From positions 3,924 to 67,923 of the forward strand of contig JAJFIX010000017.1 in assembly GCA_021774575.1 (NCBI GenBank): DNA of 64,000 bases. The letters are read 5' to 3'. The DNA is from Alphaproteobacteria bacterium (GTDB lineage: Bacteria > Pseudomonadota > Alphaproteobacteria > UBA6615). A model generated the notes under the pieces. That model searched no databases. It was given only the letters and a program-made list of their open reading frames with translations, and had not been told where the DNA came from. This document shows positions 7,917-62,812 of this stretch, piece after piece. The position numbers and the translations under genes were made by a program. How positions within the stretch are numbered: position 1 is the stretch's first letter; each line of letters opens with the position of its first letter.

Positions 7917-8585
7917 TTAGCTGAGATGCTCTCCGAAGAATTCGATAGTGCGGTCCCAGGCGAGCTTTGCCGACCCTTCGTGGAAACTTCCGCGGTCGTC
8001 GCAATTAAACCCGTGACCGGCGCCGCCATAGACGTAGACCGGCACGTTCGGGTGGGCGGTCTTGATATCTTCGATGGCCTCATTGGGGATTGAGAAATCC
8101 TCGGTGCCAAAATGAAGCTGTACCGGGCATTTCGGCTGGCGGGCGATTTCCTGATGAATTTGTCCGCCATACCAGCCGGCGGCCGCTTGGATTGGTGATT
8201 CGTCTGCTGCAACCCAGGCGATTGATCCGCCAAAACAAAAGCCAAGGACACCGGTTTTTCCGGCGTCGGCAATTTCGGCCGCCGAAGCATTGACGTCGTT
8301 AATGACGTCGTCCCAGCTCAGTTGGCCACGATAGCCCATGCCTTGTTTCATAGTTTCTTCGTTATAGCCGAGCTCAACGCCTTTCTCGATACGGTCGAAA
8401 ATGGCTGGCGCGATTGCCGTATAGCCTTCTGCCGCCATGCGGTCGACGACGCTGCGAATATGGCTGTTGATGCCGAAGATCTCCTGCATGATGACGACAC
8501 CAGCCTTCGGCGTGCCCTCAGGCACGGTCTTATATGCGCTGAATGTGTTGCCGTCGGCGCCGGTCAAGGTCACGAAACTTCCCAT
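7917..8585 (-). CDS. dienelactone hydrolase family protein
   Basis: Alpha/beta-hydrolase with a Cys nucleophile elbow (GFCFGGS) and a C-terminal GAGHGF block. Start moved to Met38 (8585), behind ggagaaag. Confidence 0.75.
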   Translation of the reverse strand: MGSFVTLTGADGNTFSAYKTVPEGTPKAGVVIMQEIFGINSHIRSVVDRMAAEGYTAIAPAIFDRIEKGVELGYNEETMKQGMGYRGQLSWDDVINDVNASAAEIADAGKTGVLGFCFGGSIAWVAADESPIQAAAGWYGGQIHQEIARQPKCPVQLHFGTEDFSIPNEAIEDIKTAHPNVPVYVYGGAGHGFNCDDRGSFHEGSAKLAWDRTIEFFGEHLS

Positions 8586-8808
8586 TGGGTCTTTCTCCTG
8601 GAATTCGAGTGGTGGGGCACTGCCCCGGCAAATACGGCGACAGACTACTCGTTTTGCGAATGAAAACAAATCTGATTGGTTGTCTAGCTTGGTCAATTTT
8701 CATCCGCTGGCGGGTGATGCTTATGTGCGTAGTTTGGTCTTGTAAGCGATGCCCATCCAAATGCTATAATAGGCCTATCGAACCATTTTAAAATTTGGGG
8801 AAAAGTTC

Positions 8809-9459
8809 ATGAGCTTAGAAGAGTCACTCGCGAAAATTCGCGAAGCGAGTGCTGGCCGCATTCCACCCGATGTTCGGGCGGTAATCGGTCGCACCAACGA
8901 GGCGCTGGCAAATTCCGGCATTCTCGACAACACGATCAAGGTCGGCGATACATTGCCGGAATTTAATCTACCAAACGCTTACGGGGACATGGTTGCTTCG
9001 TCGGCGATGCTTGCCCGCGGTCCGGTGGTCCTGACCATCTTCCGCGGCCATTGGTGACCCTACTGTAATGCAGAGCTGTATGCTTTGCGTGACATTGTAG
9101 ACCCGCTAAAAGACCTCGGCGTTACGTTGGTAGCACTGACACCCCAAATTGCCGAAAAAAGCGTCGAGATGATCGAAAAGCATAAATTGCAATTCGATAT
9201 GCTCAGCGATCGTGGCAATGAATATATGGCAAAGCTCGGTATCCGCTTTGACGTGCATCCTGATTTGCAAGAAGTCTATAAGGGCTTCGGCAATGATTTG
9301 GCCGTCAATAATGGTGAGCCAAGCTGGACCCTGCCGATCCCGACGCGACTGGTCATTGATCAGTCGGGCGTCATTCGAAATGCCGATATCGGCCTCGACT
9401 ATACGCACCGTCCCGAGCCGCAAAAGACCCTTGATGACGTCAAAGCATTGATTGGCTGA
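8809..9459 (+). CDS. PRX_like2 / AhpC-TSA family thiol peroxidase-like protein, probable selenoprotein (UGA 9055-9057 read as Sec83)
   Basis: ORFs 8809-9057 and 9085-9459 are in the same frame and are separated only by one TGA. Read-through gives VVLTIFRGHW-U-PYCNAELYALRD, the family motif RGxWCPYCN with TGA in place of the first Cys. A hairpin follows. Confidence 0.65.
9060..9100 (+). other. putative bacterial SECIS-like hairpin
   Basis: Apical stem GCAGAGC (9070-9076) pairs with GCUUUGC (9082-9088): 7 bp, one G-U. The loop is UGUAU (9077-9081). Outer pairing: CUAC 9060-9063 with GUAG 9097-9100, and AAU 9067-9069 with AUU 9094-9096. The loop starts 19 nt after the UGA and contains GU. Confidence 0.45.
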
Positions 9460-9512
9460 CCAGGGCTTGGCTGACCTGGTCGCGGTTGATCCGGTCAAAT
9501 AATATGTGAGAG

Positions 9513-9544
9513 ATAGCGGGGCAGATTCGCCCCGCTATTTTTTT
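9513..9544 (+). terminator. rho-independent terminator
   Basis: Perfect 10-bp stem atagcggggc / gccccgctat with a 6-nt loop, followed directly by a T-run. Lies between the convergent Prx-like and ychF genes. Confidence 0.8.
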
Positions 9545-9556
9545 CCGGTCTCCGGG

Positions 9557-10657
9557 TCAGACGTTAAACCGGAACAACATGATATCCCCATCGGCAACGA
9601 TATAGTCGCGGCCTTCCTGGCGCATTCGTCCGGCATCTTTTGCCCCTTGTTCGCCGCCATGGGCGACAAAATCTTTGTAGCCGATTGTCTCGGCACGGAT
9701 GAAGCCGCGTTCGAAGTCGGTATGGATAACCCCTGCCGCCTGTGGGGCTGTCGCACCCACAGGCACGGTCCAGGCGCGGGTTTCTTTCGGCCCGGCGGTA
9801 AAATAGGTCAGCAGATCCAAGAGACCATAACCGGCCCGGATGACCCGAGTCAGGCCGGTTTCTCCTAATCCCAGCTCTTCCAAGAAGGCTTGTTGGTCTT
9901 GGCGGTCGTCGAGTTGCGACACCTCGGACTCGATCGCGGCGGAAATGATCACATGGGCCGCACCTTTGGTGGCGGCCATTTCGGCGACTTGGGCGGAAAA
10001 AACATTGCCGGTCGCGGCGCTCTCCTCGTCGGTATTGCAGATATAAAGAATTGGCTTGGCGGTGAGCAGCTGGAGGCCGCGAAATCGGTCCTTATCTTCG
10101 CCCGCGACGTCAACGCTGCGGGCCGCTTTGCCGTCTCGCAGCGCCGCCAACACGGCCTCCATGAGCGGTAACTCCGCCTTGGCATCTTTTTCCCCGCCAC
10201 GGGCTTTCTTGATGACCGGCTCAATGCGCTTTTCCATGCTTTCTAAGTCGGCGAGCAGGAGTTCGGTCTCTACTGTTTCAGCGTCGCGGACCGGGTCGAC
10301 GTCGCCCTCGACATGGGTGATATTGTCGTCTTCGAAGCAGCGCAAAACATGGCAAATTGCATCGACGCTTCGAATATGGCCGAGAAACTGATTGCCGAGC
10401 CCTTCGCCTTTTGCCGCCCCGCGCACCAATCCAGCGATATCGACAAATTCCAGAGCAGTCGGCACGATTTGCGCCGATTTGACCAGCCCGGCAATCGTGT
10501 CGAGCCGTTCATCGGGGACCAAAGCCCGGCCGGTATTGGCGTCGATGGTGCAGAAGGGGTAGTTCGCCGCTTCGGCCTGAATGGTCGCGGTCAACGCATT
10601 AAAAAGTGTCGATTTGCCGACATTCGGCAGCCCGACAATGCCGCAATTAAAACCCAT
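9557..10657 (-). CDS. ychF: redox-regulated ribosome-binding ATPase YchF
   Basis: 366 aa. P-loop [18 protein letters not shown], a DIAGLV block and the C-terminal TGS-like block [27 protein letters not shown]. Confidence 0.95.
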
Positions 10658-31116: not shown

Positions 31117-33267
31117 ATGTCGGAACGATCATTTGCTGGAGAAATAGAGAAGCTGAGGCTGGGGGAGGGTGAGACCTTCTCTGGTGAAGGCATTCTTGCG
31201 ATCACCAAGGCGCTTTTGCAGTCGGGCGTATCCTATGTCGGCGGCTATCAGGGGGCGCCGATTTCTCATCTCCTCGACGTCATGGTTCAGGCCAAGGATT
31301 TGATGGGCGAGTTGGGTGTTCATGTCGAAGCCAATACGAATGAAGCCTCGGCGGCGGCGATGCTTGGTGCTTCGATCAGTTATCGGGTGCGCGGCGCAGT
31401 GACTTGGAAATCGATCGTCGGCACCAACGTTGCGTCCGACGCTCTTTCTAATCTCGCCTCGGCGGGTGTTATCGGTGGCGCCTTGGTCATTGTCGGTGAA
31501 GATTACGGTGAAGGAGCGAGTGTCATCCAGGAGCGCACTCTTGCGTTTGCCCTCAAATCCTCCATGTGGATGATCGATCCGCGACCAAACCTGGCCAGCA
31601 TGGTCGATTTGGTCGAGAAGGGGTTCGAGCTCTCTGAGGCGAGCAGCACGCCGGTGATGATGGGATTGCGCATTCGCGCATGCCATCTGATGGGCTCATT
31701 CGAGACAAAGAAAAACCGGATGGGCACCCTAAATACCAAGGATAAAGCGCCCGAGCCTGCCGGGTTCAATTATGCGCGACTCAGTCATCCGCCGGCGACC
31801 TTTGTTCAAGAGGCAAAAAAGATCGATCAACGATTGCCTGCAGCCGTGCAATATATTGTCGACCACGGGCTCAACGAAACTTTTCCCGGACCGGTTGATA
31901 CGGTCGGGATCATCATGCAGGGCGGGCTCTACAATACCGTTTTGCGCCGCCTTACCGCTCTTGGTCTTGCCGATGATTTCGGCAATAGCCAAATCCCTTT
32001 GCATATACTCAATGTGACCCATCCGCTGGTGCCCAAGGAAATCACCGAATTTTGCCAATCGAAAATGGCCGTTCTTGTGATTGAGGAAGGCAGCCCAGAA
32101 TTTATCGAGCAGCAGATAAACACGATTTTGCGCCGGGCCGATATTCAGACAAAAGTATTCGGCAAGGATGTGCTGGCGAACGCTGGGGAGTATACGGCCG
32201 AAATCGTCATGTCGGGGCTGGTCGATTTCTTTGGCGAGTCTGAGCCGGTTGGCATCATGCTCGAAGATGTACGCGACCGGGCGGCACGCCTGCTCAATTC
32301 TAGCCAGTCGGCTTCGGCGCATCTTGCGGCACCGCCGCCGCCCCGTCCGCCGGGATTTTGTACCGGCTGTCCCGAGCGCCCTGTTTTTTCAGCGATCAAG
32401 CTGCTTAAACAAGAACTCGGCGATTTTCATATTGCGACGGATATTGGCTGCCATGCCTTGGCCACCTTCGAGCCCTTCAGCATGGGGAATTCGATATTGG
32501 GCTATGGCATGAGCCTTGCCAGCGCTGCGGCGGTTGCGTCGTTTCAGGAAAAACGGCCGATCGCTATCATGGGCGACGGCGGGTTTTGGCATAACGGCAT
32601 GCAGACCGGTGTGTTGTCGCAGCTTTTCAATCATGGCGATGCGGTCCTGATCATCATGCAGAACGGCTATGCCTCGGCGACGGGGCAGCAATATTTGCCG
32701 CCAGCAACGACCCCAGACGGGGTCGGCGGTGGTGGAACCCAGGCCGGGGAAATTGAAGCGGCACTGCGGGCCTTACATGTAAAGTGGATCCGAACCGTGC
32801 GAACCTATGGCGTCAACACAATGCGCGACACGTTGCGCGAGGCGATGACAACAGATAAGCCCGGCTTGAAAGTCATTATTGCAGATGGCGAATGCATGCT
32901 GGCCCGCCAACGTCGACTGCGTCGGGTCAATGCCGAACGGTTGAACACGGGGGGGCGGGTGGTCGCGCCACGTTTCGGCATTGACGCCGAAATTTGTACC
33001 GGCGACCATGCTTGTATTCGCTTGTCCGGCTGTCCGTCATTGACGGTCATTGACAATCCAGATCCGCTCAAACGAGATCCAGTTGCTTCCATTGACAGCT
33101 CTTGTGTTGGTTGCGGCCTGTGCGGGGAAAACGCCCATGTCGCTTCACTCTGTCCGTCATTTTATGGTGTAGAGCGGGTGCAGAATGCCAAGTTGGTCGA
33201 ACGCCTGACCGATCGCGTACGCCGCCGAGTTATCGGCTGGTTTGCCGATGCAGATCAACCTGCCTAG
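31117..33267 (+). CDS. iorA: indolepyruvate/2-oxoacid:ferredoxin oxidoreductase alpha subunit
   Basis: 716 aa. TPP-binding block MGDGGFWHNG and two C-terminal ferredoxin-type Cys clusters (CTGDHACIRLSGCPS, CVGCGLCGENAHVASLCPS). Confidence 0.8.
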   Translation: MSERSFAGEIEKLRLGEGETFSGEGILAITKALLQSGVSYVGGYQGAPISHLLDVMVQAKDLMGELGVHVEANTNEASAAAMLGASISYRVRGAVTWKSIVGTNVASDALSNLASAGVIGGALVIVGEDYGEGASVIQERTLAFALKSSMWMIDPRPNLASMVDLVEKGFELSEASSTPVMMGLRIRACHLMGSFETKKNRMGTLNTKDKAPEPAGFNYARLSHPPATFVQEAKKIDQRLPAAVQYIVDHGLNETFPGPVDTVGIIMQGGLYNTVLRRLTALGLADDFGNSQIPLHILNVTHPLVPKEITEFCQSKMAVLVIEEGSPEFIEQQINTILRRADIQTKVFGKDVLANAGEYTAEIVMSGLVDFFGESEPVGIMLEDVRDRAARLLNSSQSASAHLAAPPPPRPPGFCTGCPERPVFSAIKLLKQELGDFHIATDIGCHALATFEPFSMGNSILGYGMSLASAAAVASFQEKRPIAIMGDGGFWHNGMQTGVLSQLFNHGDAVLIIMQNGYASATGQQYLPPATTPDGVGGGGTQAGEIEAALRALHVKWIRTVRTYGVNTMRDTLREAMTTDKPGLKVIIADGECMLARQRRLRRVNAERLNTGGRVVAPRFGIDAEICTGDHACIRLSGCPSLTVIDNPDPLKRDPVASIDSSCVGCGLCGENAHVASLCPSFYGVERVQNAKLVERLTDRVRRRVIGWFADADQPA

Positions 33268-33275
33268 GCCATATT

Positions 33276-34703
33276 ATGAGTAAGGAAAGCGTACGGCCGG
33301 TCACCATTTTAATTGCCGCCCTTGGTGGCGAGGGTGGTGGGGTGCTGATGAATTGGATTGTTGAGGCCGCGCACTTGGCCCGATTTCCCGTGCAGGCAAC
33401 ATCGGTTCCCGGCGTCGCGCAGCGGACCGGCGCCACCACATATTATATTGAACTGATGCCCGGTAAAGCCGATGGCAATATACCCGTCATGTCTTTGTCA
33501 CCCGTGCAGGGTGAAATAGATGTGATGGTTTCGACCGAATTAGCCGAGGCCTCGCGGGCCCTGGCTGGCGGATTTATTTCTTCCGACCGCACCGCCCTGA
33601 TTGCGTCGACCCACCGCCATTATATGAATTTGGAAAAAATGGCGATGGGAGAAGGGCGGTTGAGCGGTGACGAGGTACGGGCGGCCCTGGAAAAATCTGC
33701 CCGTAGCAGCGTGTTGTTTGACGCAGCGGAATTGGCGCTGGAAAACGGCGTTCATGTTAACGCCATCATGTTGGGCACAATCGCGCGAACCGGATTGTTG
33801 GGTATTGATCGCGAGCATTTCATTGGCGCCATTGGCCGGTCGGGCAAATCGGTAGACGCCAATTTAAAGGGTTTCGAACTTGGCTTGACCATTTCCGATG
33901 AGAGCGAACTGGACTTAGTGGACAAAAAATCTGTTTTTCTCTCCGGCCCAGACGCGGTTGAAGATGCAGTCCGGCGTCTCGAAAAATACCAGAATGCCAA
34001 ATATGCGCAGAAATACCGTGATCGATTGGCGCCGTTTCAGGCTGGCGACCCGGTTGTCGCCGAAGCGGTGGCGCGGCATTTAGCTATACGGATGACCTAT
34101 GACGATATCATTCGGGTCGCCCAGGCTAAGATCGGTGCAGGCCGCTTGGATCGCATCCGCGGCGAAGCCGGAGCGCAACCGGGGGAACCGCTCTACGTTA
34201 CGGATTTTTTTAAGCCGGGCGTTCAGGAAGTTGCCGATCTTTTGCCGCCGCGCTTGGCACGAGCATGCCTGAACTGGGCGGCGAAAAAGGATCGGATGCA
34301 TCGAGTGTCCTGGCCGCTGTATATCCGAACCACGACTGTGTTTGGATTTCTAAAAATCTGGGCTCTGGCGAAATTGCGCTGGTGGCGCCCGCGCTCATTT
34401 CGCTGGACCTTTGAGCAAGAGGAGATCGACTTGTGGCTCGCTGCGATCCGGCAGATGGGAACTCTTGACGTTGGCGCGGCAAGGGAAATTGCAGAGCTTT
34501 CAGGTCTGATCAAGGGGTACGGAGCGACACATGCTCGGGGGATGCATAGCTATAACAAAATTCTAACTGCCCTAATTGACCCAGTCTTAACGGGCGAGGC
34601 GCCTCCGCGACCTCGGCTTGCCGCGCAAATTCTTGAGGCGCGCCTCGCAGCGCTGGCCGATCCCGACGGTGCGGCTTTGGACGCGTGCCTGGAGGCCGAC
34701 TAG
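33276..34703 (+). CDS. iorB: indolepyruvate oxidoreductase beta subunit
   Basis: Start moved to the ATG at 33276 (MSKESVRPVTILIAALGGEGGGVLMNW, the POR-gamma-type GGEGGG motif), 9 nt after the iorA stop. Confidence 0.75.
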   Translation: MSKESVRPVTILIAALGGEGGGVLMNWIVEAAHLARFPVQATSVPGVAQRTGATTYYIELMPGKADGNIPVMSLSPVQGEIDVMVSTELAEASRALAGGFISSDRTALIASTHRHYMNLEKMAMGEGRLSGDEVRAALEKSARSSVLFDAAELALENGVHVNAIMLGTIARTGLLGIDREHFIGAIGRSGKSVDANLKGFELGLTISDESELDLVDKKSVFLSGPDAVEDAVRRLEKYQNAKYAQKYRDRLAPFQAGDPVVAEAVARHLAIRMTYDDIIRVAQAKIGAGRLDRIRGEAGAQPGEPLYVTDFFKPGVQEVADLLPPRLARACLNWAAKKDRMHRVSWPLYIRTTTVFGFLKIWALAKLRWWRPRSFRWTFEQEEIDLWLAAIRQMGTLDVGAAREIAELSGLIKGYGATHARGMHSYNKILTALIDPVLTGEAPPRPRLAAQILEARLAALADPDGAALDACLEAD

Positions 34704-40023: not shown

Positions 40024-41292
40024 TTACATGACTTCCGAGAAAGGGAGAAATGCAACCGTCTCGCCGATATTAAGTTGTGTCATGTCTTCGGGCAGCTCAA
40101 CCAGCCCACTGGCCCCGACAAAAGAGGACAGAATACCGGCACCTGCCCGGGGAAATTTTTGTGCGACCAGTTGGCCTGCATCGTTTTGGCTCAGTCGGGC
40201 CCGGATGAATTCCCGTCGACCGGGCTTTTTTGCGTGATTAAAATCACTGGTTACCGGAAAGAGCGGTGGGGTAATTGATTGGCCACCACCCAATGCGAGA
40301 ATGGCCGGGCGGGCGACGCGCAAAAATGTGACCATCATTGCCGCCGGGTTTCCCGGTAGGCCAATAAAAGCGGCGGTGCCGATTTCACCCATGGCGACCG
40401 GACGGCCGGGCTTGATCGCCAAGCGCCAGAAGTTTAGCCCGCCCACCGCTTCAACCGCATTCCGGACGTGATCTTCATCACCTACCGAGACGCCGCCGGA
40501 GGTGATGATCAAATCATGACTTTGCGCGGCTTGGCCCAGTTTCTGGGCGATTATTTCGCCGTCATCCGGGAGGATGCCCAGATCGCTCACACGGCAGTTT
40601 AGACCGCGTAATAGGGCCAATAAACAAGTACGGTTGGCGTCGTAAATGGCCCCGGCCGGCAGTTGACTGCCCGGGTCATGAACTTCGTCGCCGGTCGAAA
40701 AAACCGCTACCTTGAGCGGTGAGAAGACGTCCAGGCGGTCGTGCCCGATGGAGGCTATTAGGCCCAAATCCTGGGGGCGCATTCTATGCCCGGCGGTGAG
40801 AAGGGTCGTCCCCAGCCGAATATCCTCTCCTTTTTCCCTGGCATTATTCCCTTGCCGAAGCCCCGGAGGCACTGAAATTTTATCCGGACTGTTGGCGCTC
40901 GGGTTCGAAATCAAGCGGCAATCTTCCTGCATGACGACCGTATCGCAACCCACGGGCATGACGGCGCCGGTAAAAATTCTGACCGCCTGACCGACGTCTG
41001 ATGGGCGATTTAGGGGGTGTCCGGCAGCGGCACGACCGGAAACGGGCAAAATGGTTTCGGTCTCGCTCGATAAATCGCTAAAGCGGACCGCATAGCCGTC
41101 GACGGCGGAATTGGGCGTCGGCGGAACATCTCGGTCGGCGATGATATCCCTGCCCAGAATACGGCCCAGCCCTTCGCTCAATGGAATTTTCTCAATTGGT
41201 GTAACCGGTTGGCAGAAATCAGCCAAAAGATCCAAGGCATGGTCAATTTTCATCAATCCAGGGCCGGTGCCGGTTTTCGAGAGCTGGGTCAT
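40024..41292 (-). CDS. moeA: molybdopterin molybdenumtransferase
   Basis: 422 aa. VDGYAV, TGDEV and ITSGGVSVGDEDHV blocks plus the PGNPAAMMVTF block. Confidence 0.9.
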   Translation of the reverse strand: MTQLSKTGTGPGLMKIDHALDLLADFCQPVTPIEKIPLSEGLGRILGRDIIADRDVPPTPNSAVDGYAVRFSDLSSETETILPVSGRAAAGHPLNRPSDVGQAVRIFTGAVMPVGCDTVVMQEDCRLISNPSANSPDKISVPPGLRQGNNAREKGEDIRLGTTLLTAGHRMRPQDLGLIASIGHDRLDVFSPLKVAVFSTGDEVHDPGSQLPAGAIYDANRTCLLALLRGLNCRVSDLGILPDDGEIIAQKLGQAAQSHDLIITSGGVSVGDEDHVRNAVEAVGGLNFWRLAIKPGRPVAMGEIGTAAFIGLPGNPAAMMVTFLRVARPAILALGGGQSITPPLFPVTSDFNHAKKPGRREFIRARLSQNDAGQLVAQKFPRAGAGILSSFVGASGLVELPEDMTQLNIGETVAFLPFSEVM

Positions 41293-41864
41293 GCCGGCGC
41301 GTCCCGATCATTTTGCAAATGACAATGGGCAACGACGAAATCAGCCAGTGCCGGTAGGTCACTGGTATCGAGTAGGGGGGTATTCAAGGCGTTCAGTTCA
41401 GGCAAGTTTGCAGGTGCATCGCTGACAACGGCGACGACGTGCGGGTCGGAAGCGGCGATCAGCGGATCGTCGCTGGCGCCAGGTCGGTAGACTTCAATTT
41501 TTGGGATGGGGGCATTCTTAAATCCTTCGACAAGGATTAAGTCGACTGTTTCCATATGCGCCAGCAGCTCGTCCAGGCCAGGTTCGTCGGCCTCGCGCAG
41601 CTCATGCATGAGCGCCCAACGCGCGGCGGATCCCACCATGACCTCTTGAGCGCCGGCCTGGCGGTGCAAAAAACTATCCTTGCCTGGGCGATCAACATCG
41701 AACTCATGATGGGCATGTTTAATCGTTGAAATCGTGTACCCGCGCGATGTCAGTTCGGCAACGAGCTTTACCATGAGGGTCGTTTTGCCGGAATTATGCC
41801 ATCCGACGATGGCCAATACGCCAGCCGATACCGGAGCCGATACGGACGACCGATCAGCCGGCAT
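41289..41864 (-). CDS. mobB: molybdopterin-guanine dinucleotide biosynthesis adapter protein
   Basis: P-loop IVGWHNSGKTTL, IKHAHHEFDVD and LVEGFK blocks. 4-nt overlap with moeA. Confidence 0.85.
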   Translation of the reverse strand: MPADRSSVSAPVSAGVLAIVGWHNSGKTTLMVKLVAELTSRGYTISTIKHAHHEFDVDRPGKDSFLHRQAGAQEVMVGSAARWALMHELREADEPGLDELLAHMETVDLILVEGFKNAPIPKIEVYRPGASDDPLIAASDPHVVAVVSDAPANLPELNALNTPLLDTSDLPALADFVVAHCHLQNDRDAPA

Positions 41865-53791: not shown

Positions 53792-54256
53792 ATGATGCCG
53801 GAAGCAATTTTTGCCGCAGGATGTTTTTGGGGCGTTGAAGACATGTTTCGCCAACATCCGGGGGTCACAAATGTTGAAGTTGGCTATACCGGCGGGTCGG
53901 GTGAAAACCCTACCTATGAAGAAGTGTGTGGCGGCACCACCGGCCATGCCGAGGCCGTTCGAATTGAGTTCGATGAAACTCGGACGACCTATTCCGCCCT
54001 GTTGGAGACTTTTTTTCGCATTCACGACCCGCGTCAGGTTAATCGCCAAGGGCCAGATATCGGCACCCAGTATCGTTCGGCGATCTTTACCTGCAGTGAC
54101 GATCAGCGTCAGGCTGCTCATTCGGCGAAAGATGCTGTAAATGAAATGTTGGAGAGCAGCGAAACGGTGGCGACCGAAATCCTACCCGCATCGAGCTTTT
54201 GGCGCGGCGAGGAATATCACCAACAATATTTCGCCAAGCATCGCCGTGGTCATTGA
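53792..54256 (+). CDS. msrA: peptide-methionine (S)-S-oxide reductase
   Basis: 154 aa. Active-site GCFWGVE, then GYTGG..ENPTYEEVC.G.TGHAEAV and DPRQVNRQGPD.G.QYRS blocks. The second ATG (53795) fits the ggag RBS better. Confidence 0.9.
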   Translation: MMPEAIFAAGCFWGVEDMFRQHPGVTNVEVGYTGGSGENPTYEEVCGGTTGHAEAVRIEFDETRTTYSALLETFFRIHDPRQVNRQGPDIGTQYRSAIFTCSDDQRQAAHSAKDAVNEMLESSETVATEILPASSFWRGEEYHQQYFAKHRRGH

Positions 54257-55714: not shown

Positions 55715-56449
55715 ATGACTGAGAGCAATGCCAAGCCGCCTTATAACGCGCCACGCTTCAAGGTGCGCCAGTATGATTTCGATGTATTCGCCGGTCCACG
55801 GGCTGGCGAAGCGGTGGATGACTATGAATTCACCGATCTTCTTGGCGATCACGTGAAATTATCTGACTTCAAAGGCAAATGGGTAGTCGTCGAGACGGGC
55901 TCGGCAACCTGTTCCATGTACACAAAAAATATTGGTGAAATGAAGCATCTCGTCGTTGATTTTCCCGACGTAAAATTTTTGGTTGTATATGTCCGCGAGG
56001 CACATCCGGGTGAGCGTTTTGGCCACCATAAAAATATTGCCGACAAAATTAAGGGCGCGGTCATGTTGGCGCCGCGATATGGCGAAACCCGGCGGATCCT
56101 CATCGACAGTATCGACGGGGCTTATCACAAGGCGCATGCGACCATGCCAAATACCTGCTACGTGATCCGGCCCGATGGAAAGGTGCATTATCGCTGCAAT
56201 TGGCTAATGCTTGATGGCCTTCGCGACGCTTTGGAGGATCGGGAAAATCTGCATCCAAACGAACATGCAGACCTTGCCAAACTGCGTGGCGACAGGGGTT
56301 ATTCAAATATGATCCGCACAATGTGGACCGGCGGCCTTCTCGCGCTGTGGGATTTCATTATCAACATGCCTGCCGTACTCAAGCGCCATGAAGCGATCGA
56401 TACCTATTACACCGAGCATGGTGAGTTTAAGAAAACGCCGGAGAATTAA
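55715..56449 (+). CDS. thioredoxin-fold protein, possibly iodothyronine-deiodinase-like (Cys form)
   Basis: 244 aa. KGKWVVVETGSATCSMYT matches the G-S-x-T-[C/U]-x-x-[F/Y] active-site pattern of deiodinase-like redoxins. Followed by ..VVYVREAHPGE. Confidence 0.4.
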   Translation: MTESNAKPPYNAPRFKVRQYDFDVFAGPRAGEAVDDYEFTDLLGDHVKLSDFKGKWVVVETGSATCSMYTKNIGEMKHLVVDFPDVKFLVVYVREAHPGERFGHHKNIADKIKGAVMLAPRYGETRRILIDSIDGAYHKAHATMPNTCYVIRPDGKVHYRCNWLMLDGLRDALEDRENLHPNEHADLAKLRGDRGYSNMIRTMWTGGLLALWDFIINMPAVLKRHEAIDTYYTEHGEFKKTPEN

Positions 56450-56473: not shown

Positions 56474-57094
56474 TTAATCGTCGTCGTCCACCATTTCTCT
56501 TGGCAAATGGTGCGCGATGCCGCGATGGCATTCGATGCAGGTCTTACCGTCTTCAATGGCCTCGGGATGTCTTCGCGATGCTCGTCTGATCTGTGCGTCA
56601 AAATCCATGGCCTCGAAGCTATGGCAATTTCGGCATTCCCGCGAGTCGGTCGCTTCCATTTCCGCCCAAACACGCTCTGCCAGGTGAAGACGCCGTTCCT
56701 CGAAATCCTCTGCTGTCGCCAGGGTTCCCATCAAATGGTAATAAAGCTCTGATGTGGCCCGTATTTTGCGCAGCATCTTGGGGCCCCATTCCCTTGGCAC
56801 GTGGCAATCCGTGCATATTGCCCGCACACCCGAGCTGTTTGCGTAATGGACGGTCTCTTGATATTCAGGAAAAACCGTGTCTCTCATTTCATGGCAGGAA
56901 ACACAGAAGCCCATTGTATTGGTTGCCTCCACCGCAGTGTGGAAACCGCCCCAAAATATGATCCCGCCAAACCCACCGACAATCAACAAAACACCAAGGG
57001 GGATGGCTTTAGCCGGATGCCAGAACCAATGCCAAAGACGCCGGATCCATGACCCACGTCGAGCAGGAGATGTGTCGGGCATGTGCCCCTCCAT
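56474..57094 (-). CDS. NapC/NirT-family membrane-anchored tetraheme cytochrome c (quinol dehydrogenase type)
   Basis: N-terminal TM helix plus four CxxCH motifs (CVSCH, CTDCH, CRNCH, CIECH) with family-typical spacing in ~200 aa. Confidence 0.85.
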   Translation of the reverse strand: MEGHMPDTSPARRGSWIRRLWHWFWHPAKAIPLGVLLIVGGFGGIIFWGGFHTAVEATNTMGFCVSCHEMRDTVFPEYQETVHYANSSGVRAICTDCHVPREWGPKMLRKIRATSELYYHLMGTLATAEDFEERRLHLAERVWAEMEATDSRECRNCHSFEAMDFDAQIRRASRRHPEAIEDGKTCIECHRGIAHHLPREMVDDDD

Positions 57095-60237: not shown

Positions 60238-60331
60238 GGGCTAAGTTATAAATGAGGGGGAGGGGGATGTGCTAGTCCGGCATAGCCGTGCTAGCGTCTC
60301 ATTTTTCCCGTTGGCAGCCGAAAGAGGTCAG

Positions 60332-60928
60332 ATGGCCCGAAAGAAACAGACAAAAAAACAATTAACGCACATCTCGAAATTGCCGGTGCCCAGTCGGCGG
60401 AGCTTGGCGGGCGATTTGCGCAAATACATGGATGTCTGCGCCGACAAGTTAGGGATGGTGCCCAATGTCGTGCGTGCATTTTCATTGCGACCGGAAAAAT
60501 TACGGACTTTTATCGCCAAATATAACGAATTAATGCTCAGCGATGAGACCGGACTATCGCGCCTCGAGCGTGAGATGATTGCCGTCGTCGTGTCGTCGCG
60601 CAATCATTGTCTCTATTGCATAACCTCCCATGGCGCGGCGGTGCGCGAGATTTCCGGCGACCCCGTTTTCGGCGATATATTGAGCACGAATTACCGTGAG
60701 GCTAATTTATCGGTCCGTCACCGGGTAATGCTCGATTATGCTTGGAAAATGACCGAGACACCGTGGCTGGTCGGTGATACTGACCGCGCCGTCCTGGGTA
60801 AAGCCGGATTTTCCGACGAGGATATATTCGACGTTACCGATGTCATCGCTTACTTCAACTACACCAACCGCATGACCGGTGGTCTCGGCATGATGCCGAA
60901 TGCGGACTATTTCGGCCAAGGTCGCTAG
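60332..60928 (+). CDS. CMD/AhpD-like peroxidase-related enzyme
   Basis: Carboxymuconolactone-decarboxylase fold with the block REMIAVVVSSRNHCLYCITSHG (CxxC..H). Start moved to the ATG at 60332, behind aaagagg. Confidence 0.7.
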   Translation: MARKKQTKKQLTHISKLPVPSRRSLAGDLRKYMDVCADKLGMVPNVVRAFSLRPEKLRTFIAKYNELMLSDETGLSRLEREMIAVVVSSRNHCLYCITSHGAAVREISGDPVFGDILSTNYREANLSVRHRVMLDYAWKMTETPWLVGDTDRAVLGKAGFSDEDIFDVTDVIAYFNYTNRMTGGLGMMPNADYFGQGR

Positions 60929-62221: not shown

Positions 62222-62812
62222 ATGGCGGTCATGATCCAAATTCTGGCAATTGGAACGATGCGCGCTGCTTGGTTTAGCCTGGCATTCATCATTGCGCTGC
62301 CCGCCGCTTTACCCGCTGCGGCGCAACAAGTGGCGGCCACCAACTCGCTTATTCTGACCGAGGCGGTAAAGGCCGAACTCAGCGAACTCGCGATCATGCG
62401 CGGCGGCGATATCGATCGCGCGAGCCTGAGCGGAAAATTTGTCATCGTCAGTTTTTTTGCTAGCTGGTGCGCGCCCTGTCGGGCTGAATTTATTGAACTA
62501 CGCAAGCTGATCGAGCGCATGGGACCCGACCGGGTCAAAGTCGTGACCGTTAACTGGCTTGAAGATTTTGCCCATTATCCGGGGGAATCTTTCCAGATAT
62601 TTCGCGTGCTAGACAGGTTGGATCCGCACATTACCGCGGTCGAGGGAACCACCTCGATCAGTCAGATATTCGGCGGACCGCGCGGTATTGGGGCAATTCC
62701 GGCTTTGTTTGCCTTCGATCCCGACGGGCATCAGGTCTATAGTTTTCAGTTTGGGATCGGCGCGCAAAAAAGTCATACAAGCGCCGACGATCTGATTGCT
62801 GCATTTAGATAA
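62222..62812 (+). CDS. TlpA/ResA-like periplasmic thiol:disulfide oxidoreductase
   Basis: Signal peptide (...PAAAQQ) and a thioredoxin fold with VIVSFFASWCAPCRAEF (WCxPC). Confidence 0.75.
   Translation: MAVMIQILAIGTMRAAWFSLAFIIALPAALPAAAQQVAATNSLILTEAVKAELSELAIMRGGDIDRASLSGKFVIVSFFASWCAPCRAEFIELRKLIERMGPDRVKVVTVNWLEDFAHYPGESFQIFRVLDRLDPHITAVEGTTSISQIFGGPRGIGAIPALFAFDPDGHQVYSFQFGIGAQKSHTSADDLIAAFR

Follow-up and report, generated by a model that had tools for sequence, protein, structure and literature searches.

The window, by which we mean the whole 64-kb stretch of DNA analyzed here, carries a peroxiredoxin-like (Prx-like) locus situated between a dienelactone-hydrolase gene (7917-8696, minus strand) and ychF (9557-10657, minus strand). 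On the plus strand, positions 8809-9459 translate as one frame of 216 codons whose sole internal stop is a TGA at 9055-9057. The ORF list splits the locus into pieces of 82 aa (8809-9057) and 124 aa (9085-9459, with a TTG start), which share the same frame; retranslation agreed with the initial annotation, in which the two pieces had been placed in one frame with a single TGA between them. Around the TGA the translation reads ...VVLTIFRGHW, then the stop, then PYCNAELYALRD... When Cys was put in place of the stop, the Pfam model AhpC-TSA matched residues 45-191 (E = 1.8e-23; 83.3 bits, cut-off 26), and the Redoxin model also matched. As the AhpC-TSA match runs across the TGA, a single domain spans the stop, in keeping with the 216-aa thioredoxin-fold product containing FRGHW-TGA-PYCN that had been proposed. 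Coordinates of the individual features are given in Table 1.

TABLE 1 Features identified at the Prx-like locus of the window
Feature	Position	Strand	Details and basis
Shine-Dalgarno-like purine-rich stretch GGGGAAAAG	8797-8805	+	Ends 3 nt ahead of the start codon (ATG, 8809); predicted from sequence
Complete CDS of the predicted selenoprotein	8809-9459	+	216 codons including Sec83; stop TGA at 9457-9459; orthologs have 214-218 codons
In-frame UGA, predicted U83, first residue of UxxC	9055-9057	+	Codon comparison with relatives
Outer (lower) pairing	9060-9100	+	9060-9066 with 9092-9100; predicted here, absent from the consensus fold of relatives
TGT, Cys86, partner (resolving) Cys of UxxC	9064-9066	+	Invariant alignment column
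SECIS-type hairpin within the CDS	9068-9090	+	9-bp stem 9068-9076/9082-9090; loop UGUAU at 9077-9081
Terminator-like G+C-rich hairpin followed by seven T	9508-9544	+	Core 9515-9522/9529-9536; T run 9538-9544; 50 nt past the stop

The terminator-like hairpin was read from the sequence and then folded, and is absent from the output of a pattern-based terminator scan; together with its T run, it sits between the convergent Prx-like gene and ychF. When the 64-kb window was searched for further pairs of ORFs with only one TGA between them, no additional candidate with a redox motif emerged. An apparent frameshift between ORFs 31117-33267 and 33102-34703 was rejected, as the second gene starts at an ATG of its own right behind the first stop. 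TGA terminates 22 of the 50 confident genes of the window and is the commonest ordinary stop there, indicating that the standard code is in use without reassignment of UGA.

The in-frame UGA in related genes

To place the codon among its relatives, genomes were scanned with one genome per species, and 50 relatives were found. TGA occupies the homologous codon in all 13 of the closest (49-64% identity), which are MAGs labelled Alphaproteobacteria, Rhodospirillales, Hyphomicrobiales, Methyloligellaceae, Rhizobiaceae, Gammaproteobacteria, and Acidobacteriota; 35 distant relatives (29-54% identity) have TGC or TGT at the Sec codon. A metagenome scan returned at least 586 relatives, the best 80 of which (45-67% identity) carry TGA without exception. 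Pooling the 13 genome and 80 metagenome sequences gives TGA in 93/93 close relatives, drawn from several phyla. The closest relative found, L213 (82% amino-acid identity), has the TGA together with an identical hairpin stem and loop, and has likewise been called as two genes, of 82 aa and 125 aa. L212 also has TGA at the Sec codon, and Cys forms at the homologous column are represented by P0007, P0009, P0012, and P0015. A pattern scan for W-UGA plus the hairpin core added at least 120 further species genomes, all with full-length homologs at 32-62% identity, and more than 200 independent assemblies share this TGA. The orthologous codon is thus TGA in the 93 close relatives and in L213 and TGC or TGT in distant ones, and the stop sits, as the initial annotation had stated, at the position occupied by Cys in Cys-type homologs.

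Ser takes the place of Sec (HW-S-P[YF]C) in P0003, P0004, P0005, P0010, and L211, at 55-56% identity. In L211 (positions 79-726; GCA_041630325.1, contig JBFKLO010000311.1) the codon is TCG and a fully paired relic of the hairpin is present. The SxxC motif of these sequences resembles the TxxC of true peroxiredoxins, and the Ser forms may be Sec-to-Ser conversions with an altered mechanism. UGA genes with 47-57% identity to the window gene were also identified under unexpected taxonomic labels, including that of an archaeon: L303 (JABMOR010000145.1, labelled Nitrosopumilus sp.), L296 (Enterobacteriaceae), and L322 (Bacillota). Mis-binning is a likelier source of these labels than a real distribution. 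Two copies of the UGA gene are present in each of the MAGs CALFFB01 (L214 and L246) and CALHGQ01 (L215 and L317), which points to paralogs in some genomes.

Constraint downstream of the UGA

In nearly all TGA loci the frame stays open for 131-136 codons past the TGA (approximately 132), and in 12 of the 13 closest genome relatives for 131-135 codons. Comparison of the window gene with that of L213 gave a dN/dS of 0.093/0.821 (about 0.11) after the UGA and of 0.218/1.70 before it; by these estimates, constraint after the UGA is no weaker than before it. The initial annotation had named decay of the downstream half, combined with an unconserved hairpin, as the pattern that would speak for a pseudogene. 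Neither was seen: the hairpin is conserved in TGA forms, and the downstream half has 131-136 open codons in nearly all loci and a dN/dS of 0.11. Nor does the locus resemble a pseudogene created by a nonsense mutation, as the stop is common to orthologs and the downstream half is constrained. Shortened tails, with 42-99 open codons past the TGA, were identified in L025, L112, L254, L282, and L291, and could be either real lesions (pseudogenes) or assembly errors.

A SECIS-type hairpin directly after the UGA

The stem described initially (9070-9076/9082-9088, with the loop UGUAU) proved correct in its coordinates, and pairing extends beyond it to 9068-9090. The loop begins 19 nt past the UGA, and G9078 and U9079 constitute the conserved loop G[G/U]. 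Folding of 9055-9110 gave an MFE of -18.3 kcal/mol, compared with -8.0 +/- 1.9 kcal/mol for shuffled sequences (n = 200; z = -5.4; 0/200 as good), and 9068-9090 alone has an MFE of -11.6 kcal/mol. The published model of the bacterial SECIS has a loop of 3-9 nt, a stem of 4-16 bp, a spacing of 16-37 nt, and an MFE of -7.5 kcal/mol or lower, with a G within the first two loop positions that is usually followed by G or U (PMC13188914). The window hairpin lies within each of these ranges, having a loop of 5 nt that starts with UGU, a stem of 9 bp, a spacing of 19 nt, and an MFE of -11.6 kcal/mol, so the earlier statement that a loop 19 nt after the UGA with GU inside it fits the SECIS rules was upheld. 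The outer pairing that had been drawn at 9060-9063/9097-9100 is predicted in this sequence but is not conserved in relatives; RNAalifold on 14 sequences placed only the upper 8-bp stem in the consensus. Rfam returned no match, either for the whole window at gathering score or for 8950-9200 at E <= 10.

Across 77 distinct sequences, standard pairs were found in 91.7% of stem cells, compared with 26-58% when the partners were slid. Strict covariation in the same 77 sequences was weak, with changes on both sides in two pairs (three cells), and did not exceed the shuffle control; thus, the RNA evidence consists of conservation and synonymous-site suppression, not of compensatory change. Synonymous-codon identity was calculated from 82 unique Sec-form CDS with a mean pairwise identity of 0.58. 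The top five 7-codon stretches of the entire gene start +3 to +7 past the UGA, at 0.76-0.85 against a mean of 0.48. The peak (0.82-0.85) falls at codons +3 to +12, directly over the hairpin, and same-codon identity past the UGA reaches 0.98 at GAG(+6), 1.0 at CTG(+7), and 0.95 at GCT(+9). At the homologous residues of 20 Cys-form sequences, synonymous-codon identity is 0.22-0.49, with no peak.

The same distinction is seen in pairing: of the 7 core positions in the stem, 6.78 pair in TGA forms (n = 79) and 3.39 in Cys forms (n = 36) (Mann-Whitney p of about 1e-20, with sequences counted as independent despite their relatedness). The hairpin is therefore kept in TGA forms and absent from Cys forms. 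The loop reads U-G-[U/G] in 78/79 TGA forms, and the window hairpin equals the family consensus at all stem and loop positions. Since the stem overlaps the conserved peptide AELYAL, part of the nucleotide conservation is explained by the protein; beyond the protein code, the hairpin is evidently selected at the RNA level.

Predicted fold and active site

The structural model of P0007, a Cys homolog that is 54% identical, has a pLDDT of 93 and consists of a Prx/Trx fold after two N-terminal helices, with the CxxC between strand 73-77 and helix 84-94. Its nearest PDB entries are BCP/PrxQ peroxiredoxins (TM 0.86-0.88, normalized to the target), and the best sequence match is Mycobacterium tuberculosis BcpB (5epf; E = 5.6e-9). 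In the alignment to 5epf, Sec83 falls at the conserved Thr of TxxC and Cys86 at the peroxidatic Cys. The NCBIfam equivalogs scored below their cut-offs (BCP, 48 against 140 bits; PrxQ, 30 against 260 bits; ResA, far short). The presence of Sec at the Thr position, along with the sub-cut-off BCP, PrxQ, and ResA scores, indicates that this is not a typical peroxiredoxin. Judged by fold and motif, the window protein is a putative peroxiredoxin-like thiol:disulfide oxidoreductase with a predicted Sec83-Pro-Tyr-Cys86 motif.

Genomic neighborhood and Sec-decoding genes

Among the 80 nearest YchF loci, the hydrolase is found downstream of ychF within the 6-kb flank in 18, and the Prx-like gene in none. 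The existence of ychF-hydrolase loci that lack the Prx-like gene points to a lineage-specific insertion, and the gene looks like such an insertion at this site. The nearest YchF proteins in the species-representative collection share 72-73% identity and come from Rhodospirillales-like MAGs.

No tRNA was found within the 64-kb window. SelA, SelB, and SelD were absent from its approximately 55 ORFs by Pfam or NCBIfam, and tblastn with the SelA and SelB of relatives as queries detected neither protein in the window. In L266 (397-5890), L305 (900-7602), and L328 (130-7436), which are Gammaproteobacteria/Pseudomonadota MAGs, the Prx-like UGA gene is directly preceded by selA, selB, and tRNA-Sec. 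These tRNA-Sec genes were identified with ARAGORN and match Rfam RF01852 at 62-66 bits (cut-off, 47), and the selA and selB assignments rest on Pfam SelA (E = 1e-158) and the SelB wing and barrel domains, with which tblastn agrees. In L249 (700-3378), the Prx-like UGA gene adjoins a fusion of Ndh and SelD (pyridine-nucleotide-disulphide-oxidoreductase/SelD). Linkage to Sec genes was seen in 4 among the 120 pattern-found loci listed, and ARAGORN and tblastn with an approximate E. coli SelD query found no linked Sec genes in the first 130 loci. The selA-selB-tRNA-Sec adjacency suggests that the Prx-like gene can travel with the Sec-decoding trait. From the window gene we infer that its host, a Rhodospirillales-like alphaproteobacterium, is a selenium user and carries a full set of Sec-decoding genes outside the 64-kb window.

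Elsewhere in the window, Cys forms of several redox proteins were identified: MsrA (53792-54256), a deiodinase-like protein with SATC (55715-56449), an AhpD/CMD protein with CLYC (60269-60928), and a TlpA-like redoxin with WCAPC (62222-62812). All four belong to families with selenoprotein members in other organisms. Genes for MoeA and MobB (molybdopterin guanine dinucleotide synthesis) and for a NapC/NirT cytochrome lie at 40024-41864 and 56474-57094. These fit an organism with Mo-bisPGD enzymes, e.g., formate dehydrogenase, without being evidence for one. Formate dehydrogenase is the commonest bacterial selenoprotein.

Proposed selenocysteine reading of the UGA and its alternatives

In bacteria, a SECIS element and SelB carrying Sec-tRNA(Sec) together deliver Sec at a UGA codon. 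At the locus described here, a selenocysteine reading of the UGA is strongly supported by the comparative sequence data, and we put the probability that 8809-9459 is a functional Sec-encoding gene at about 0.9, the residual doubt concerning the Sec machinery, of which the 64-kb window has none. During translation, the 9068-9090 hairpin would act as a bacterial SECIS, its loop, 19 nt past the UGA, presenting G9078 and U9079. SelB with Sec-tRNA(Sec) would bind the hairpin, so that Sec would be delivered at 9055-9057 in place of chain termination by release factor 2, and translation would run on to the stop at 9457-9459. From the fold and the motif, Sec83 is expected where the first active-site helix of the Prx/Trx fold starts. 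It would serve as the nucleophile on a substrate disulfide or peroxide and would then form a selenenylsulfide with Cys86, to be recycled by a thiol reductant.

The alternative that survives best, although improbable, is that a Sec gene was acquired by a genome that lacks Sec decoding or has since lost it, in which case translation would halt at 9057 and the locus would be non-functional or decaying. The lack of Sec machinery within the 64-kb window is compatible with such a relic, as is the apparent insertion of the gene into a conserved ychF-DLH neighborhood. Relatives of the L211 type, with Ser (TCG) for Sec and a hairpin relic, and the few TGA loci with shortened downstream halves (L025 and L112) can be read in the same way. 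However, the window copy shows no lesion besides the TGA, its hairpin agrees with the family consensus throughout the stem and loop, the downstream dN/dS against L213 is 0.11, and the full-length frame is flanked by a Shine-Dalgarno-like site and a terminator-like hairpin. Moreover, Sec genes are usually unlinked to their targets, with linkage in only 4 among the 120 loci listed.

Readthrough of the UGA without Sec, whether by near-cognate insertion of Trp or Cys or by a lineage-wide reassignment of the codon, is less probable again. Its one point of support is P0001, in which W stands where the DNA of L212 has TGA, but this reflects the choice of code by one public gene caller and is not evidence. 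TGA is the stop of 22 of the 50 confident genes of the window, and the position aligns with Cys in homologs, not with Trp or Gly; moreover, a SECIS-type hairpin, and selABC linkage in relatives, would be superfluous for plain readthrough. Finally, a sequencing or assembly error from TGC or TGT to TGA, or a pair of independent small genes, for which nothing speaks except the automatic ORF split, can practically be dismissed, as the TGA recurs in more than 200 independent assemblies and one Prx fold, which neither half would form alone, crosses the site (strand 73-77, active-site loop, and helix 84-94 in the P0007 model).

With the functional Sec-encoding gene as the preferred reading, a further and more speculative question concerns its spread. 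The 19-nt SECIS core GCAGAGCUGUAUGCUUUGC, with close variants, is near-identical in Desulfobacterota, Planctomycetota, Acidobacteriota, and Alpha- and Gammaproteobacteria. This similarity across phyla, the selA-selB-selC adjacency in three MAGs, and the insertion at ychF-DLH raise the possibility, which we regard as rather unlikely on balance, that the Prx-like UGA gene is a mobile "passenger" that moves between genomes together with the Sec-decoding trait or in its wake. If this were true, many SelB proteins would be able to read the near-invariant SECIS as a "universal" element, and the Ser-for-Sec variants with a hairpin relic would mark lineages that have lost the trait.

Implications for annotation

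In the public protein collection, Sec forms of this gene are mostly held as C-terminal fragments of approximately 123 aa (P0011, P0014, P0017-P0020, and P0061-P0120), under names such as peroxiredoxin, AhpC/TSA, and "redoxin domain-containing protein, partial." As most relatives are held in this form, the misannotation is systematic. The locus should be annotated as one selenoprotein gene with a transl_except for Sec at 9055-9057, rather than as two fragments or a pseudogene, and it would then serve as a marker of selenium use in the lineage. The family SECIS, being highly conserved, would be well suited to a covariance model with which such genes could be detected automatically, and would lend itself to testing how SelB recognizes SECIS elements in different phyla. 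The window gene leaves the current understanding of selenoprotein biology unchanged, and what it chiefly brings is a corrected annotation.

Comparison with known systems

The window hairpin shares with the bacterial SECIS consensus its location directly 3' of the UGA inside the ORF, a small loop with G followed by U or G, a spacing inside 16-37 nt, and a stable upper stem. It differs from the prototype SECIS of E. coli fdhF in having no bulged U in the stem, and the two sequences are presumably unrelated.

At the protein level, the best sequence and structural matches are BCP/PrxQ structures (BcpB, 5epf; Sulfolobus Bcp1 and Bcp4), but identity to these is only 17-24%, and BCPs lack the N-terminal extension of approximately 40 residues and two helices. 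True Prx carry their catalytic residue at the second position of the TxxC or TxxU motif. Sec-containing Prx of the TxxU type share the Pfam family, the fold, and the character of a redox selenoprotein with the window protein, in which, however, Sec replaces the Thr, the Cys stays at the peroxidatic position, and the motif is a thioredoxin-like UxxC.

The closest correspondence is with a family that has been described repeatedly. As the initial annotation had stated, Prx-like selenoproteins are already known from marine metagenomes: 22 sequences of the Sargasso Sea selenoproteome belong to a "Prx-like protein" with a thioredoxin-like UxxC motif (PMC1088965), and "Prx-like 1, pfam00578, UxxC" accounts for 225 sequences in GOS (PMC2398784). 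Geobacter, Desulfotalea, and Syntrophus are credited with a "Prx-like thiol:disulfide oxidoreductase" (PMC1794560), the Prx-like selenoprotein having been first predicted in Geobacter and other Deltaproteobacteria (PMC1088965, PMC2398784, PMC1794560, PMC13188914). A 2026 review describes the family as "predicted with high confidence" and not experimentally verified (PMC13188914). MAGs of Geobacteraceae, Desulfuromonadales, and Desulfotalea, together with the isolate Desulfosediminicola flagellatus, carry W-UGA-PYC with the same hairpin core; in these MAG and isolate sequences, the full-length homologs are 36-45% identical to the window gene. The published reference sequence of the family is WP_010940744.1. 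The window gene is an additional member of this selenoprotein family, described since 2004-2008, with which it shares the PF00578 domain, a UxxC with Sec first, and a bacterial SECIS right after the UGA. It differs in its host, which is a Rhodospirillales-like member of the Alphaproteobacteria; as of 2006, the selenoproteins known from sequenced Alphaproteobacteria were limited to FdhA (PMC1794560).
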